Shown here piece by piece: positions 38,385 to 55,708 of a stretch of DNA of 64,000 nucleotides. Positions within the stretch are counted from its first letter, which is position 1, and each line of letters opens with the position of its first letter. The DNA is taken from NCBI GenBank assembly GCA_964196275.1, contig CAXMSN010000067.1, positions 15,399 to 79,398 of the forward strand, written 5' to 3'. Origin of the DNA: an uncultured Kiloniellales bacterium. GTDB lineage: Bacteria; Actinomycetota; Acidimicrobiia; Spongiisociales; UBA5794. The notes beneath the pieces were generated by a model, which saw only the letters and a program-made list of their open reading frames with translations, was not told where the DNA came from and made no database searches. The position numbers were made by a program, and so were the translations under genes.

Positions 38385-39389
38385 ATGACGAAATATGCGG
38401 TTATTGGGGCGGGGTCTTGGGGGACGACGGTTGCTGCGATGGTTGCGCCCGTTGTGGAGACCGTCATGTGGGCACGGAACGATGCGGTGTCTCAAGACAT
38501 CGAGCATCGGAACCGCAATTCTGCGTATCTCGACGGCTTCGATCTTCCGGTGTCCTTGCATGCGACGACTGACATCGCTGAAGCGCTGACCGGAGCCGAT
38601 GTCGTGGTCATGGGCGTCCCGTCCCACGGCTACCGGACTGTGCTCGAAGACTGTGCACCGTTCATCGACAGCAGCACACCCATCGTCTCCCTGTCGAAGG
38701 GGATCGAGGCAGGGACACTGATGCGGATGACGGAGGTCACCCTTGACGTCCTGCCTGACCACGACCCATCGGTCGTTGGGGTTCTCACCGGCCCGAACCT
38801 CGCACGCGAGATCATGCAGGGCCAACCTGCAGCCACCGTGATCGCCCTGCCGGACGCAGGGACAGCATCGGAACTCCAGCAGGTGTTCATCAACCCTCGA
38901 TTCCGTGTCTACACGAACACAGACGTGGTTGGCGCTGAGTCTGCAGGTGCGGTGAAGAACGTTATGGCGATCGCTGCCGGCATGGCATCCGGCAAGGGAT
39001 ATGGAGACAACACACTTGCGACGCTCGTGACGAGGGCACTCGTCGAGATGACACGCCTCGGCGTCGCGATGGGCGGTGACCATCGAACCTTCCCCGGCCT
39101 CGCTGGCCTCGGTGACCTGATAGCGACGTGCAACAGCTCTCAAAGCCGTAACCACAAGGTCGGCTTCGCTCTCGGCCAGGGCCGCACGCTCGAAGAGGTC
39201 ACATCGGAGATGAACATGGTGGCTGAAGGTGTCAAGTCCACAAGCGGCGTGCTCGAACTCGCACAGCGCCACGACGTCGAGATGCCCATCGCCGTACAGG
39301 TTGGTCGGGTTATCTACGACGGCGTCGAACCGGGCGTCGCTCTTCACGAACTCATGACGAGGGCCGCAGGGAGTGAGTACTCGGACTAG
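38385..39389 (+). CDS. gpsA: NAD(P)H-dependent glycerol-3-phosphate dehydrogenase
   Basis: Start ATG-38385: 'MTKYAVIGAGSWGTTVAAMVA'. Also 'SLSKGIE', 'GPNLAREI' and 'AGAVKNVMAIAAG'. Confidence 0.93.
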   Translation: MTKYAVIGAGSWGTTVAAMVAPVVETVMWARNDAVSQDIEHRNRNSAYLDGFDLPVSLHATTDIAEALTGADVVVMGVPSHGYRTVLEDCAPFIDSSTPIVSLSKGIEAGTLMRMTEVTLDVLPDHDPSVVGVLTGPNLAREIMQGQPAATVIALPDAGTASELQQVFINPRFRVYTNTDVVGAESAGAVKNVMAIAAGMASGKGYGDNTLATLVTRALVEMTRLGVAMGGDHRTFPGLAGLGDLIATCNSSQSRNHKVGFALGQGRTLEEVTSEMNMVAEGVKSTSGVLELAQRHDVEMPIAVQVGRVIYDGVEPGVALHELMTRAAGSEYSD

Positions 39390-40027
39390 ACGGTGGTGCT
39401 GAGGGCCGGCGGGCTGAAGGTGCTCCTCGCAGCTTCGACCTCGTCTCTGATCACACAGCCGCCGAGATGATCGTTGACCAGTCCCATCGCCTGCATGAAC
39501 GCATACATCGTCGTCGGCCCCACGAACCGCCAGCCCCGCTTCTTCAGATCCTTCGACAGCGCCGTCGACAGCTCGGTCGTCGGCTGGATGTCCAAGGGAG
39601 CAGGGCCCCGAGCGGGCTCGTGAGACCAGAGAAACGCACCGACCGATCCGAACTCGTCAGCCATTTCGAGCGCCCTGCCTGCGTTGTTGATCGTGGCCTC
39701 GATCTTGCCTCGGTGTCGCACGATCCCTGCATCCTGTAGCAACTCCAACACGTTCGCCTCTGTGTACTCCGAGACGACCACAGGGTCGAAGTCGGCGAAC
39801 GCTGCTCTGAAGTTCTCCCGCTTGCGAAGGATCGTCAGCCAACTCAGCCCCGACTGGAAGCCCTCAAGGCAGATCTTCTCGAACAGCCGGCGTTCATTCC
39901 CCTGAGGGAAGCCCCACTCGGTGTCGTGATACGCCTCGTAATCGGGATCGGACAGCCCCCACCAGCAGCGGAGACGTCCATCGGCACCTGGTTCGGTATG
40001 CATGAGGGCAGAATAGACAACAGACAA
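39386..40027 (-). CDS. tag: DNA-3-methyladenine glycosylase I
   Basis: 'RLRCWWGLSDPDYEAYHDTEWGFP..LFEKICLEGFQSGLSWLTILRKRENFRAAF'. The start may be ATG-40027 or ATG-40003. Confidence 0.9.
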   Translation of the reverse strand: MSVVYSALMHTEPGADGRLRCWWGLSDPDYEAYHDTEWGFPQGNERRLFEKICLEGFQSGLSWLTILRKRENFRAAFADFDPVVVSEYTEANVLELLQDAGIVRHRGKIEATINNAGRALEMADEFGSVGAFLWSHEPARGPAPLDIQPTTELSTALSKDLKKRGWRFVGPTTMYAFMQAMGLVNDHLGGCVIRDEVEAARSTFSPPALSTTV

Positions 40028-40068: not shown

Positions 40069-41142
40069 TCAGGTTGCGTCGTCGTCTGCGGCTCTCTGCT
40101 GCGCTGCCTTGGAGTACCGCAGCACCACGCTCATCACGTCTTCTATGTAGTCGGGGTCCAGGCCGACCGCCGCCGCGTCGGCTCGGGCCTCAGCTATGAG
40201 CTCGGCTTCGCGGTTTGGCGACTCCATTGCCAGCCCACGCGATGCCTTGAGTTGGCCGATTTCGATGGAGCTTCTCAGCCGTCTTGCGATCAGCTTCAGC
40301 AATTCTCTGTCCATCCTGTCGATCTCATCCCGAAGCGAGGGAATGCCGAGACTGTCCATCAGCGTTGCGAACGCGTCGAAGTTGAGGTGCCCACCCGTAC
40401 GGAATCCAGCGGACTCGGGATCCGGGTGCACGGCCACCATGAGGCCATCGGCACCGGCGACCCTGACCGCCAATGCAAGTGTCCCGATGAGGTCGAGCGA
40501 GCCAGTGGTTGGTGCAGGGTTCACGACGACGGGCAGCTGGGACATCTGCTGCACGACCGCCACAGCCGAGATGTCAACCGTCCCTGAGGTTCGTGGGTCG
40601 AAGCCCTCCGATCCACGCTCGCAAAGGATCACCCGGGTACCGCCCGATAACACGTGATCGGCAGCAACGAGCCACTGGTCGACGGTCGCCTCAGCGCCGC
40701 GGTGGACGATGACCGGGAGCCCAGATTCGCCAGCCGCCACGAGCAGTTCGCTCTCCAGCATGCGCGACGGTCCGATCTCGAGGATGTCGACGTGCTCGAC
40801 CGCCTTGGCGACCTCGTTGGGTTCGAAGACGAACGTCGATGTGGCCAGCCCTGTTGCTCGACTTGCGTGCTCAAGCAACCACAGGCCATCCTCAGCGAGC
40901 GGCGAGAAGCCAGCCGCAACGTCATCCGGTAGGAATGTTGCCGATCGCAGCACAAGCCCTCCAGCTTCGCTGACCGCCGATGCCGTCGCCATGATCTGTT
41001 CCTCGGACTCGACGGCAGCGGGACCGGCCAGCACAGGGAACGCCCCATCGCCGAAGCGCACGTCAGCAGCCGCGACCACGGTCGTTTCTAGGTCGGGTTT
41101 CCTCTGGCTCTTCAGTTGTGGTTCGTCGTCAGCCACGGTCAT
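40069..41142 (-). CDS. degenerate type I-beta DAHP-synthase-like domain fused to a C-terminal AroQ chorismate mutase
   Basis: Start ATG-41142, a 14-nt overlap with the upstream gene. The DAHPS fold aligns throughout ('LAGPAAVESEEQI', 'VILCERG', 'GADGLMVAVHPDP'), but the catalytic motifs are substituted. The CM domain 'LRDEIDRMDRELLKLIARRLR..IGQLK..NREAELI..VLRYSKAAQ' looks intact. Confidence 0.8.
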   Translation of the reverse strand: MTVADDEPQLKSQRKPDLETTVVAAADVRFGDGAFPVLAGPAAVESEEQIMATASAVSEAGGLVLRSATFLPDDVAAGFSPLAEDGLWLLEHASRATGLATSTFVFEPNEVAKAVEHVDILEIGPSRMLESELLVAAGESGLPVIVHRGAEATVDQWLVAADHVLSGGTRVILCERGSEGFDPRTSGTVDISAVAVVQQMSQLPVVVNPAPTTGSLDLIGTLALAVRVAGADGLMVAVHPDPESAGFRTGGHLNFDAFATLMDSLGIPSLRDEIDRMDRELLKLIARRLRSSIEIGQLKASRGLAMESPNREAELIAEARADAAAVGLDPDYIEDVMSVVLRYSKAAQQRAADDDAT

Positions 41143-42190
41143 CACCCCCCAGGAGGTCCTTGCACGCCTTTGCGAGGCTCGGTGCAATCGGTTCAAACGC
41201 TGCGAACCGATCGTCCGTCGTCTGACCTGCGACGTACCTCGCGTAGATCTGCTCGATGATGACAGCGATTCGAAAGAGCGCAAGCGCCTCGTAGAACGCA
41301 ACGCCAGAAACATCGAACCCTGTTCGCTCGGCGTAGCGTGCTCGCACCTCGCTCTTGGGCATCACATCGCCGATCGCGACGGCACGATCACCGAACACGG
41401 GATACGTCGGGTCGCCGGGCTGTGCCCAGTACGCGAGCAAGGTTCCAGCGTCGACCAGCGGGTCCCCCCTTGTGGACATGTCCCAATCGAATACCGCCAC
41501 AAGGGATCCGTCATCCCCGATCATCGTGTTATCGAGTTTGTAGTCGTTGTGCAGGATCGCCACCCGTTGGGGTTCGGGGAGCGAGCCCATCAGCAGGTCG
41601 CTTGAAATCTCCATGTCCTCGACCGGCCTCGTCGTCGCTGCCTGCCAGCGCCTCGTCCATCCTTCGATCTGGCGGGAGACGAAACCATCCGGATGCCCAA
41701 GATCGTCGAGGCCGACATCAGCCGGATCCACGCTGTGCAGATCCGCGAGGCCGTCGACAAGCGATTCGGCAACCGTGCGCTGTGCGGATGGTTCCGAAAG
41801 GGACTCGGGCCAGGTTCTGCGAACCACGGTCCCTGACCTCCGCTCCATGACGAAGAACGGCTTTCCCATCACATCAGGGTCGTCGCAGTAGTGATACGCC
41901 TGTGGGGCAAGGGGATATGCACGCCACAGCCGAGAAAGCACGCGGTGCTCCCTGCTCATGTCGTGTCCGCCCTTGGCAACTGACCCGAGGGGCGCCCGCC
42001 TCAGAACGAATTCGCCGCCATCAGCGGCCACGGCTCGATAGGTGAGGTTGGCGGCTCCACCTGGGAACTGATCGAACGAGATCGTCCCATCGCCGAAGAG
42101 TTCAGGGAGGCGGGCGCGCAGGTAGCCCGCAACGGTCGATTCGTCGAATCGCTCTTCATCCCTGATCGGTGCCGTGTCAGCCATCGACAT
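41129..42190 (-). CDS. phosphotransferase-family (APH-like) kinase
   Basis: Start ATG-42190. 'FPGGAANLTYR', the catalytic loop 'ILHNDYKLDNTMI' and 'VAVFDWDMSTRGDPLVD'. Confidence 0.82.
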   Translation of the reverse strand: MSMADTAPIRDEERFDESTVAGYLRARLPELFGDGTISFDQFPGGAANLTYRAVAADGGEFVLRRAPLGSVAKGGHDMSREHRVLSRLWRAYPLAPQAYHYCDDPDVMGKPFFVMERRSGTVVRRTWPESLSEPSAQRTVAESLVDGLADLHSVDPADVGLDDLGHPDGFVSRQIEGWTRRWQAATTRPVEDMEISSDLLMGSLPEPQRVAILHNDYKLDNTMIGDDGSLVAVFDWDMSTRGDPLVDAGTLLAYWAQPGDPTYPVFGDRAVAIGDVMPKSEVRARYAERTGFDVSGVAFYEALALFRIAVIIEQIYARYVAGQTTDDRFAAFEPIAPSLAKACKDLLGGDDRG

Positions 42191-42206
42191 CAGACTAGAA
42201 GAAGGG

Positions 42207-43292
42207 TCAGCCGACGACCATCTGCCAGCAGAGCGCCACGATCGCGACGGCGAAAACGACCGTAAGACCGACCTCGAGGGCGTGCCGCATGACCGAGACC
42301 CCCTCAGCGCGCATCGTTGGACCGCGCTCGACAGCCACGACGCCGACGATCCCAACACCGATCAATGCCGATGCGGCTGCCATCCACATCCACGCGTCAC
42401 CGACAGACGCTGCGTGGGCGAGTCTGTCCACCATCATCGCAAGAAAGACTCCCGCGAGGTACAAGTTGGTGAACACGAAGAACCGCATTGCGCGGCCCCT
42501 CTGACCTCGGAGCTTGCTTGCCAAGCCCACCAACGCTGCACCAAGCGTCACCGCAGTCGCCGAATAGATCCAACCAAGGTCTGAGACCGCCGGAAGCATC
42601 AACGCCGTCCCGGCTGCTACCACCGAGTACCAGAAGATGTTGGCGAAGGTTGGCGACTCGCCGACCACGACTGGCAGCATCGGCACAGAAGCCGCTCGAT
42701 AGTCATCTTCGTACTTGAGCGACAGTGCCCAGAAGTGAGGGGGGGTCCAGAAGAAGATGACCGCAAACATCACCCAGGCGGCAAGAGACAATGAGTCCGC
42801 ATACGCCGCCCACCCGATCAACGCCGGGATGGCACCGGCGGCTCCCCCGATCACGATGTTCTGCGTGCTCGACCGCTTCAGCAGCATCGTGTACACCACG
42901 ATGTAGTACATGAAGGCCGTTGCGGCGAGCAGGCCAGCCAACAGGTTCGCACCGAACGTAAGCACGAGGAAGCCTGCAACTCCGAGGAGCCCACCGAACC
43001 ACGTCGCTGCCGAGGAACTCACCCTGTCCGTTGGCAGAGGACGAGAGGCTGTGCGGCGCATGAGCTTGTCGATGTCGGCGTCGTACACCTGGTTGATCAC
43101 GTTGGCGCCGCCAGCCGCAAGGGTCCCTCCGAGCAACGTGACGAGGATCAGCCCGAGTCCGGGCCACCCGTCCGCCGCAACCACCATCGCCGGGATCGTC
43201 GTCACAAGGAGCAATTCGATGATTCGGGGCTTCGTCATCTCGACGTATGCACGCACAACCGAGTCCTTGCTCTCCGACGTTGCCTCACTCAT
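42207..43292 (-). CDS. ctaB: protoheme IX farnesyltransferase (heme O synthase) with ~60-aa extra C-terminal TM region
   Basis: 361 aa. 'YVEMTKPRIIELLLVTTIPAMVV', 'NQVYDADIDKLMRRTASRPLP' and 'FFWTPPHFWALS'. Confidence 0.92.
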   Translation of the reverse strand: MSEATSESKDSVVRAYVEMTKPRIIELLLVTTIPAMVVAADGWPGLGLILVTLLGGTLAAGGANVINQVYDADIDKLMRRTASRPLPTDRVSSSAATWFGGLLGVAGFLVLTFGANLLAGLLAATAFMYYIVVYTMLLKRSSTQNIVIGGAAGAIPALIGWAAYADSLSLAAWVMFAVIFFWTPPHFWALSLKYEDDYRAASVPMLPVVVGESPTFANIFWYSVVAAGTALMLPAVSDLGWIYSATAVTLGAALVGLASKLRGQRGRAMRFFVFTNLYLAGVFLAMMVDRLAHAASVGDAWMWMAAASALIGVGIVGVVAVERGPTMRAEGVSVMRHALEVGLTVVFAVAIVALCWQMVVG

Positions 43293-53506: not shown

Positions 53507-54538
53507 TCAGGGTACGAGCAAAAGGCCCTCGTCTTCAAGGGCATGGGACAGGGCGCCCTCCTCTCCGGGACGTACGGAGATCGTGAGGACACCTCCTCCA
53601 CCATGAGGAGCGTGACGCATCTGGATGTCCCTCACATCGACCTCGGATGCTTCGAGTGCGTGTCCGACTTTCGCAATCTCTCCTGGTTGGTCAGCGAGCG
53701 CCACCCTGACAGCGGCTACCGGCGCTCCCAGGGACCGCCGTGTCTGTCGCGCCTCAGAGAGGAGTGCAAGCAACGTGTCGTCATCCGACACGATCGCAGC
53801 TTCAAGAAGCGCCAGGCGCTCCCTGAGAACGCCGATGGAGGCGAGAACCGCCGGTGCGTTCGTCTGCAGTATCTCGACCCAGGGGATCGGAAGTGATGCC
53901 CCGACCCTCGTGAGGTCTCTGAAGCTTCCTGCTGCGAGTTCAAGCGCACCATCTTCGTCTACAGCGGTCGCAAGAAGGGCACCGGCAACGAGTTGTGGCA
54001 GGTGGCTGATCCTGGCTACGGCAGCGTCGTGATCTGACGCACTCATCCTGACGACACGTCCGCCGAGCGTCTCGATGACCGACACGACCGACCGATCCGC
54101 GTCAGGGCTCGCTCCATCGATCACGACCCACGAGGCACCTCTGAAGAGGGCGGCGCTCGCCGCCGTAGGTCCCGATGTCTCCCTGCCGGCCATCGGGTGC
54201 GTTCCGACGAACCCAGCCAGATGGTCTGTTACAGCCAGTACGGGAGCCTTCACACCGGCAACGTCCATCACAGCGGTGTCAACGGCCATATCTGAGAGAA
54301 CTTCGATCGTCGCCTTCGGTGGGACAGCAACGATCACAACGTCGGGTGCCGGTTCGAGGACGGCATCCAAGGAGTCGGCGTATGTCGATGCGAGTCCCCG
54401 ATCCTTCGCGATAGCGAGTACGTCAGGGTCAGCGTCGTATCCGATGACGGTCCATCCCGACTTCGAAAGGCCGACTGAGATCGATCCTCCGATCAACCCA
54501 AGACCGATAACCGCAGCTCGTTTCATGTCGTACATCAC
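53507..54538 (-). CDS. tyrA: prephenate dehydrogenase with C-terminal ACT-like domain
   Basis: 343 aa. 'AAVIGLGLIGGSISVGL', 'DVAGVK' and 'HPMAG'. The start could be 54538 or ATG-54526. Confidence 0.88.
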   Translation of the reverse strand: MMYDMKRAAVIGLGLIGGSISVGLSKSGWTVIGYDADPDVLAIAKDRGLASTYADSLDAVLEPAPDVVIVAVPPKATIEVLSDMAVDTAVMDVAGVKAPVLAVTDHLAGFVGTHPMAGRETSGPTAASAALFRGASWVVIDGASPDADRSVVSVIETLGGRVVRMSASDHDAAVARISHLPQLVAGALLATAVDEDGALELAAGSFRDLTRVGASLPIPWVEILQTNAPAVLASIGVLRERLALLEAAIVSDDDTLLALLSEARQTRRSLGAPVAAVRVALADQPGEIAKVGHALEASEVDVRDIQMRHAPHGGGGVLTISVRPGEEGALSHALEDEGLLLVP

Positions 54539-54574
54539 CGTTGATCAACCATCCAATGAGGCTAGGGGTGTCCA

Positions 54575-54750
54575 GGCAGCGACGGAAGTCGGACGACGGA
54601 ACCAGACTCGAAGTCCGAACTCCGAAATCCGACCAAGACCAGAGCCCGGAGCCAGATCGGAAGATTCTGGTCTGATAGCGAGCGCAGTCAGCGGATCGGA
54701 CTTCGGGCAGCGAGCAAATCGGATTTCGGCGAGCGAGGCGAAACCAAGCG
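54575..54750. repeat. cluster of short inverted/direct repeat modules filling the tyrA / epimerase divergent intergenic region
   Basis: Paired modules are 'cgaagtccga' (54609) with 'tcggacttcg' (54697), 'ccgaaatccga' with 'tcggatttcgg', and 'gaccaga' with 'tctggtc'. They are interleaved with 'agcgagcgcag', 'gcagcgagc' and 'cgagcgagg' modules that also occur at 10230..10327 and 56973..56988. Confidence 0.75.
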
Positions 54751-54766
54751 ATCCTACCCTCGGCTC

Positions 54767-55708
54767 ATGCGACGGGTATTCGTAACAGGAGCAGCCACGT
54801 GGACCGGTGGTCAACTGGTCAAGCAACTTGAGGCACGCGACGACCTTGAGGTCTTCGCCGTGGACGATGAGGATCCGCGCATCTCGTTCTCGTCACCTTT
54901 CGAGAGGCTGTCACTCGAGCGCCTTGCGCTCGCTCGCTACATGCTTGAGGTCAAGCCGGAGATCGTCGTTCATCTTCAGTCGGTTCACCGAACCGCTGAG
55001 GAGGGTCGCAATACCGATGGCGAGGAGAGAATCGTCGGAGCGCTTGCCCTATTCGGAGCGATCGAGCGCCTCGACAGCGTGAGCACCGTGATCGTCAAAT
55101 CGGACACTGCCTTCTACGGAGCAAGCCCCAGGAACCCATCGGTTCTGAAGGAGTCGACCCGCCCTCAGGGGACGCCGAGCAAGTATCAGCGCGACCTCAC
55201 AGAGATGGAGCGTTTCGTCTCGGAGACGTCACAGCGCCACACGGACATCAACTACACGGTTCTCCGCTTCGCCCCGATCTTCGGCCCAGAGGTCGGAAAC
55301 CCGTTCAGCCGCTATCTCGGCCTGCGTGTTGTCCCAACGTTGCTCGGTTTCGATCCCCGCCTCCAGGTGACACATGAGCGAGATGCGGTCGCGGCTCTCG
55401 AACACGCCCTCGATGTCCAGGTCCCCGGCACGTTCAACGTTGCAGCGGACGGACAGATGTACCTGTCCCGTGTCCTGCGGCTTGGTCGGAGGATTCCGCA
55501 GCCGCTACCAAGCAAGATGTACGAATCTGCGATGAGGGGCCTGACACGGGTGAACATCACCGTTCCTGCCCATGTCCAGGGGATCCTCAAGTACGGCAGG
55601 GTCGTCGACACTTCGTTGATGAGGTCTGAGTTCGGATTCACACCGGAGCACACCTGCAGGCAGACGGTCCTCAATGCCTACGGGATCACCGGGAAGGTGG
55701 CACCGTGA
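54767..55708 (+). CDS. NAD-dependent epimerase/dehydratase family protein
   Basis: 313 aa. 'MRRVFVTGAATWTGGQLVKQLE' (Rossmann fold). Confidence 0.8.
   Translation: MRRVFVTGAATWTGGQLVKQLEARDDLEVFAVDDEDPRISFSSPFERLSLERLALARYMLEVKPEIVVHLQSVHRTAEEGRNTDGEERIVGALALFGAIERLDSVSTVIVKSDTAFYGASPRNPSVLKESTRPQGTPSKYQRDLTEMERFVSETSQRHTDINYTVLRFAPIFGPEVGNPFSRYLGLRVVPTLLGFDPRLQVTHERDAVAALEHALDVQVPGTFNVAADGQMYLSRVLRLGRRIPQPLPSKMYESAMRGLTRVNITVPAHVQGILKYGRVVDTSLMRSEFGFTPEHTCRQTVLNAYGITGKVAP

Follow-up and report, generated by a model that had tools for sequence, protein, structure and literature searches.

Why would a bacterium keep a full-length DAHP synthase (DAHPS) barrel that carries none of the catalytic residues of its family, and keep it fused to a chorismate mutase (CM)? 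The question is raised by a gene on the minus strand of the window, by which we mean the whole 64,000-nucleotide stretch of DNA that was analysed. The barrel and a C-terminal AroQ domain form one polypeptide, as in the C-terminal CM-linked DAH7PS enzymes. The gene and its parts are as follows:

40069..41142, minus strand: fusion of a dead DAHPS barrel and a chorismate mutase, complete gene of 357 aa plus stop (ORF, translation, Pfam, homologue starts)
40357..41073, minus strand: type I-beta DAHP-synthase-like TIM barrel, about residues 24-262, without catalytic residues (alignments to 1vs1, 1zco, 3nvt and 5j6f)
40336..40359, minus strand: conserved junction M262-x-x-L-G-I-P-S (alignment of 121 sequences, alignment with CM-only genes)
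40093..40335, minus strand: AroQ chorismate mutase domain, about residues 270-350, with the full catalytic set (Pfam CM_2, 1ecm alignment)

The longest open frame extends as far as position 41313, and the homologues begin at or near position 41142. With the start set at 41142 according to these homologues, the gene overlaps the end of the upstream APH-family gene at 41129 by 14 nt. Pfam places DAHP_synth_1 (PF00793) at residues 24-261 with 118 bits, covering model positions 6-257 of 270, and CM_2 (PF01817) at residues 270-349 with 68 bits. Homology to the DAHPS/KDO8PS TIM barrel is full-length according to both Pfam DAHP_synth_1 and Foldseek.

The metal ligands of type I-beta DAHPS are Cys31, His201, Glu227 and Asp238 (P. 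furiosus numbering), and PEP and E4P are bound by KPRTS, GARN, the lysine of LKRG and the arginine of ERGIRTF. The motifs were compared in phmmer alignments to the solved DAHPS structures 1vs1, 5j6f, 3nvt and 1zco, with an agreeing result from a MAFFT alignment that uses the numbering of P. furiosus 1zco. In 1zco numbering, GPCSVES has become GPAAVES (Cys31 to Ala), VDPSH has become VNPAP (His201 to Pro), VEVHP has become VAVHP (Glu227 to Ala) and ALSD has become AGFR (Asp238 to Arg). The substrate-binding motifs have changed likewise, with FLPDDVA for FKPRTSP (Lys60 to Leu, Arg62 to Asp), EIGPSR for QIGARN (Arg115 to Ser), VHRG for LKRG (Lys136 to His) and ERGSEGF for ERGIRTF (Arg169 to Glu), which makes nine exchanges in all, at each of the four metal ligands and at five residues for substrate binding. 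All NCBIfam DAHPS models score the fusion under their curated cut-offs, including TIGR01361 (202.9 against 267.75); with PRK08673 it reaches 221 against 335. The intact fusion of G130, a genome of the same order, passes the NCBIfam cut-offs with 381 (TIGR01361) and 410 (PRK08673). The initial annotation had described the DAHPS domain as dead on the basis of six substituted motifs. All six substitutions were reproduced, phmmer and MAFFT restored neither a ligand nor KPRTS, and the description is borne out by the alignment to solved structures together with the family-wide conservation of the losses; the exchange of Arg169 for Glu is an extra loss that was absent from its list. Since metal, PEP and E4P binding have been lost, the barrel makes no DAHP, and the alignments mark it as a former type I-beta DAHP synthase without a single catalytic residue left.

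A search of a 5.8-billion-protein collection returned more than 120 two-domain proteins with 53-95% identity, 121 of which were aligned. Named homologues come mostly from Acidimicrobiia MAGs and are called DAHP synthase, bifunctional enzyme or chorismate mutase in the databases. Cys31, Lys60, Arg62, Arg115, Lys136, His201, Glu227 and Asp238 are retained in 0/121 members, while Arg169 is still arginine in 84/121, though never in the subfamily of the window. Several of the substituted residues are themselves fixed (E122 in 121/121, H147 in 116/121, P125 in 115/121 and P211 in 111/121), and M262, L265, G266, I267 and P268 of the junction are invariant across the 121 sequences. Because the losses are common to 121/121 members over this range of identity, they are more than chance.

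The CM domain presents the opposite picture. A gapless alignment to the E. coli enzyme (1ecm) pairs R271, R288, K299, R311, E312, S344 and Q348 of the fusion, in this order, with EcCM R11, R28, K39, R51, E52, S84 and Q88, which we take to be the catalytic residues in 1ECM. All seven are kept in 120/121 family members, in agreement with the earlier description of this domain as intact. TIGR01808, the model for the high-GC mycobacterial-type CM, matches residues 267-318 only, with 37.6 bits against a cut-off of 52.15.

The source genome, a 2.09-Mb MAG that is 83% complete, contains one PF00793 match and one PF01817 match, both in the fusion gene. Among 21 genomes (the source MAG and 20 relatives from its genus, family and order) no AroH-type CM was found, nor was there a second CM in the same-genus genomes that are 95-99% complete. 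With no other CM found, the fusion looks like the sole CM; at 83% completeness, the source MAG taken by itself could still encode a second one. A prephenate dehydratase gene is located on contig C37 and a prephenate dehydrogenase gene within the window. Since both are encoded, the organism needs prephenate, for which the fusion is the only visible source. We infer CM activity of the fusion from this context, namely the sole CM_2 match, the lack of an AroH-type gene and the presence of prephenate consumers. The separate DAHPS that the initial annotation had suggested looking for was found as a full-length type II DAHP synthase at G000:C125 (692 bits). The features of the window that bear on the pathway and on the locus are:

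53507..54538, minus strand: prephenate dehydrogenase (tyrA), consumer of the CM product (Pfam PDH_N and PDH_C)
54539..54766, no strand: empty site, flanked by tyrA and an epimerase gene (tblastn search of the window with the G018 locus, flank Pfam)
41129..42358, minus strand: APH-family phosphotransferase, upstream of the fusion, conserved neighbour outside the pathway (PF01636, synteny across the family)
39386..40027, minus strand: 3-methyladenine DNA glycosylase I (Tag), downstream of the fusion, conserved neighbour and locus marker (PF03352, synteny)

No aromatic-pathway operon was seen around the fusion, whose neighbours are CtaA, CtaB, the APH-family kinase, Tag, GpsA and PhoH. These are unrelated housekeeping genes, and their synteny is useful only for marking the locus. 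At the site matching the empty one beside tyrA, genome G018 carries an intact I-beta DAHPS with a ferredoxin-like regulatory domain (PF18152), upstream of tyrA.

An AlphaFold2 model computed with the family alignment as input has a mean pLDDT of 90.3 and predicts a barrel with all eight strands and, after it, three long helices. Foldseek superimposes the barrel on 1zco and 1vs1 with target-normalised TM scores of 0.89-0.90 and an rmsd of 2.3-4.1 Å. Most between-species pairs of the genus are saturated (dS >1.3 or undefined), and selection was therefore read from the four close within-genus pairs that are informative: the window against the P0002 contig, the window against the P0003 contig, P0002 against P0003, and G038 against G153. 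In these pairs dN/dS is 0.046-0.082 for the barrel (Nei-Gojobori, 246 codons) and 0.04-0.14 for the CM domain. Seven genomes of the genus have a full-length copy, each with an unbroken open frame; in an eighth genome, G155, the fusion is split across two contigs. Neutral decay of the barrel in this genus was considered and rejected on account of its dN/dS.

Within subfamilies, the mean pairwise identity is 70.5% for the barrel and 72.4% for the CM domain, and the mean conservation is 0.83 in the loops of the former catalytic face and 0.71-0.76 in the helices and back-face loops. Between the subfamilies, the barrels are 53% and the CM domains 62% identical. The barrel has changed faster than the CM domain on the branch leading to the window's genus, which could reflect a partial relaxation of selection. 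At thirteen positions, 10 of them in former active-site loops, each of the two subfamilies has fixed a residue of its own; the differences include (window's subfamily against the other) L63S, A68G, P72A, A76P, P81G, F104E, S126D, R127N, N208D, F247A and R248G. These changes coincide with a switch in the type of DAHPS that the genomes encode.

This switch, and the history of the barrel as a whole, can be followed in a class-level survey of 151 genomes and a family-level (f1) survey of 101 genomes from 30 genera. The C-terminal-CM fusions fetched across the order form one clade on the barrel tree (SH-aLRT 99), in which the intact members branch outside a group of partly degraded and dead ones, and the dead fusions are monophyletic (SH-aLRT 99). 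Fully intact fusions are found in G130, G078 and G126. Ten genomes, G098 and G086 among them, hold partly degraded fusions. In all of these the Cys, His, Glu and Arg169 are kept, and position Lys136 is still basic, with Lys or Arg; KPRTS and the GARN arginine are both lost in 9/10, and the tenth, G138, keeps KPRRS and has lost the GARN arginine. The locus order CtaB-APH-[fusion]-Tag-GpsA-PhoH is conserved in the family. Most family genera combine a dead fusion with a second, intact I-beta DAHPS and lack a type II enzyme. A gain of type II DAHPS was considered as the first cause of barrel death and rejected, since most dead-barrel genera are without this enzyme. The redundancy that first permitted barrel death was most likely provided by the second I-beta DAHPS paralogue rather than by the current type II enzyme.

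The genus of the window forms one clade with genera g3, g90 and g99 (SH-aLRT 100), in which the type II DAHPS is present and the I-beta paralogue absent. Only the window's genus keeps the barrel there. In g3, g90 and g99, a CM-only gene of ~95 aa lies between APH and Tag, and the barrel has been excised at the same locus. A five-gene tree leaves g1, g3 and (g90+g99) unresolved, and the barrel losses accordingly amount to one to three events; the common start of the CM-only genes, at the codon equivalent to Met262, favours few deletions. The clean removal means that the CM can evolve to work without the barrel, which is not indispensable for it in this lineage.

According to our analysis, the fusion is probably a working CM, and probably the only one of the organism, with the barrel serving as a folded, selected and non-catalytic accessory domain that supports it. 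The AroQ domain would turn chorismate into prephenate, to be used by the prephenate dehydratase and the prephenate dehydrogenase, whose genes lie apart from the fusion, and DAHP would be produced by the separate type II enzyme. We posit that a paralogue made the DAHPS activity redundant, whereupon the barrel may have lost catalysis and kept its supporting role. By analogy with the enzymes of Prevotella and Porphyromonas, the barrel most likely lies against the CM dimer and helps it to stay stable and to bind chorismate; an effector may also bind to the face that once held the active site and has since been remodelled.

The closest known counterparts are PniDAH7PS of Prevotella nigrescens and PgiDAH7PS-CM of Porphyromonas gingivalis, in which a short linker likewise joins an I-beta barrel to a C-terminal AroQ domain within ~360 aa, a likeness of architecture taken from published descriptions. 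As is probably true of the window's genome, a fusion of this type is typically the only CM of its genome, and intact members of the architecture occur in the same order and clade as the fusion of the window. CM performance in these enzymes depends on contact with the barrel (PMC8408635, PMC12202928): separation of the domains attenuates both activities of PniDAH7PS (PMC8408635) and raises the Km of PgiDAH7PS-CM for chorismate from 19 to 207 µM (PMC12202928). The scaffolding or regulatory role proposed for the barrel in the initial annotation gains support from this dependence, as well as from the low barrel dN/dS and the intact predicted fold, and we infer such a role on these grounds; any ligand binding is putative. 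The characterised enzymes further suggest that dependence of a CM of this architecture on its barrel may be the reason for the retention of the latter. Unlike the fusion of the window, which is without the DAHPS residues, the Prevotella and Porphyromonas enzymes are truly bifunctional, and their DAHPS is inhibited by prephenate. With every DAHPS catalytic residue gone, only one direction of such a reciprocal allostery could survive in the fusion, which is a degenerate derivative and not a functional member of the C-terminal-CM-linked DAH7PS enzymes.

The N-terminal CM-linked DAH7PS of Bacillus, Listeria and Geobacillus (3nvt, 5j6f) also join an I-beta barrel to an AroQ domain, and the barrel of the fusion aligns with them at E ~1e-41 to 1e-48, but their domain order is reversed. 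In the Bacillus type, a weak CM regulates the working DAHPS, and the main CM activity comes from a separate AroH enzyme (PMC8408635). The notion that these roles are inverted in the fusion, with a pseudo-DAHPS probably serving the CM, is supported by our analysis. The accompanying remark that a C-terminal CM is the less common arrangement stands for characterised enzymes, among which it is rare, and fails for this class, where it is usual for CM fusions. A pairing of type II DAHPS and AroQ CM is also known from Mycobacterium and Corynebacterium, there as a non-covalent complex, and the CM-only sister genera g3, g90 and g99 have exactly the same gene content. The window's CM differs from the mycobacterial one in its descent from a fusion lineage, with the TIGR01808 match partial and below cut-off, and in carrying a dead barrel of 260 residues; here the pairing is one of gene content. 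The barrel also resembles pseudoenzyme domains that partner active enzymes, which retain a catalytic fold without catalytic residues under purifying selection. In a search of the open-access literature, we found no account of a CM joined to a dead DAHPS barrel, nor a published example of a DAHPS-derived pseudoenzyme domain.

The second remodelling of the former active site leaves an effector-binding role open, and we consider it possible, if rather less probable than not, that the dead site now serves as an effector pocket through which the fused CM is controlled. The pocket of the window's genus would then have been rebuilt a second time exactly at the exchange of I-beta for type II DAHPS. 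It has lost acidic residues (E104F, D126S, D208N) and gained two arginines and two phenylalanines (R127, R248, F104, F247), and such a pocket would suit an aromatic carboxylate like prephenate, phenylpyruvate, Phe or Tyr. The same remodelling can be read as the mark of a protein partner: the barrel could be mainly a docking or regulatory module for the real DAHP synthase, co-regulating the first and the branch-point steps through hetero-oligomers with the I-beta paralogue in most genera and through tethering of the CM to the type II enzyme in the genus of the window. Among the f1 genera checked, the dead-barrel fusion is retained in all those with an I-beta paralogue, barrel deletions are confined to the one clade that lacks this paralogue and has a type II DAHPS of 690-700 bits, and the 10/13 subfamily-fixed residues in former active-site loops coincide with the DAHPS type switch; complexes of type II DAHPS and CM are moreover established in Mycobacterium and Corynebacterium (PMC8408635). 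A partner-directed role stays open on account of where the barrel was lost, but we regard it as unlikely to be the main one. Behind the correlation stand a single switch and between one and three deletions, so that it lacks statistical independence, the I-beta paralogue has an allosteric domain of its own (the ferredoxin-like domain, seen in G018, the sole paralogue examined in detail), and the window's genus keeps its barrel at a dN/dS of ~0.05 without any I-beta partner.

Deletion of the barrel in sister genera might instead mean that in the window's genus it is a vestige without a function of its own, whose deletion is still to come. This genus indeed has the lowest Pfam scores of all fusions (101-119 bits) and sits on a long branch (0.63). 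We nevertheless find this account very improbable in view of the low dN/dS in all four close pairs, the almost equal within-subfamily identities of barrel and CM, the intact frame in 7/7 full-length copies and the confidently predicted fold. The strong conservation of the former catalytic face, which is the best-conserved loop surface of the barrel, and the fixation of its substituted residues could also hint at a new catalytic activity gained through E122, H147, R148, R176 and H239, along with R127 and R248 in the genus of the window. This appears just as improbable, because the metal ligands and the PEP-binding lysine and arginine set are all gone, the subfamilies differ at ten pocket positions in a manner unlike a fixed catalytic site, no operon partner points to a new pathway, and the sister genera deleted the barrel with no replacement seen at that locus. 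That the fusion could still be a DAHP synthase working through unconventional residues is scarcely credible: only database names speak for it, and against it stand the loss of all four metal ligands and of five residues for substrate binding, with Pro, Ala or Asp now in several of these places, as well as the full type II DAHPS in the genome. The reading of the barrel as an accessory domain that supports the CM is therefore the one that we prefer.

For the annotation of these bacteria, it follows that the names '3-deoxy-7-phosphoheptulonate synthase' and 'bifunctional DAHPS/CM', carried by hundreds of Acidimicrobiia proteins, are misleading. As these proteins cannot make DAHP, it is an error for metabolic reconstructions to count them as the step that opens the shikimate pathway; in the window's genus, the true entry enzyme is the type II DAHPS. 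A few recombinant proteins would test both the retention of a pseudoenzyme domain and the change of an active site into an allosteric site. If the effector pocket is real, the order would hold a natural series for the latter, from intact over partly degraded and dead to remodelled or deleted. Within one order and at one conserved locus, the barrel is found intact, without its substrate motifs, without its metal site, as a pseudoenzyme and finally excised, which makes this series an unusually complete natural record of a catalytic domain becoming an accessory domain.

The gene adjoining tyrA in the window is missing, and the site of its loss can be seen directly:

53507-54538, minus strand, tyrA
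54539-54766, gap of 228 nt between tyrA and the NAD-epimerase gene
54767-55708, plus strand, NAD-epimerase gene

At the position matching this gap, genome G018 carries an intact FXD-I-beta DAHP synthase (DAHPS); the gap is a clean loss of that gene. The dead DAHPS-chorismate mutase (CM) fusion itself begins within its upstream neighbor, its start codon lying 14 nt inside the 3' end of an APH-family phosphotransferase gene (window 41129-41142). The pairing of these two genes is conserved family-wide, and a functional link between their products is not obvious.

Degradation of the fusion is only partial in ten genomes (G028, G074, G066, G023, G086, G114, G098, G106, G094 and G138; loci L036-L044 and L049). 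The metal-ligand residues Cys/His/Glu are retained by these proteins, as is Arg169, and position Lys136 is still basic (P. furiosus 1zco numbering), while the GARN arginine is gone and KPRTS is replaced by PTGAS, KQGNS, KSTSS, VAGAS or APQGS, except in G138, where KPRRS is still present. Their NCBIfam score is close to the cut-off (276 vs 267.75), and they might bind metal or use another substrate.

An intact DAHPS-CM fusion is found in G078, where the prephenate dehydratase gene directly follows it in the same orientation:

G078:C92:32192-34783, site of the intact DAHPS-CM fusion (L047)

Since the dead and partly degraded fusions that were checked all sit at the CtaB locus (CtaB-APH-[fusion]-Tag-GpsA-PhoH), the intact one may be located elsewhere in the genome.

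In genera g3, g90 and g99, the locus of the fusion holds CM-only genes (L064-L069 and L093-L096) of ~95 aa each, and in every one the initiating Met corresponds to the fusion's invariant Met262. They are accompanied by a type II DAHPS, a combination that re-establishes the gene set known from the mycobacterial DAHPS-CM system. Dead fusion, I-beta paralogue and type II DAHPS co-occur in G172 (g95), G183 (g106) and G185 (g108), which may represent transitional states or separate acquisitions; the type II enzymes of G183 and G185 score lower, at 612-616 bits versus about 690-700 bits.

In many genomes of the same order, a protein of ~680-750 aa combines CM_2 with prephenate dehydratase, ACT and, in the same frame, an I-beta DAHP synthase that is intact:

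G007:C1, about 1022300-1024340, P-protein-DAHPS fusion (L019)
Further loci of this fusion: L008, L012, L014-L018, L020, L024

This protein is a P-protein fused to DAHPS, of which we know no described example, and it unites the first, the branch-point and the Phe-committed steps in one protein.
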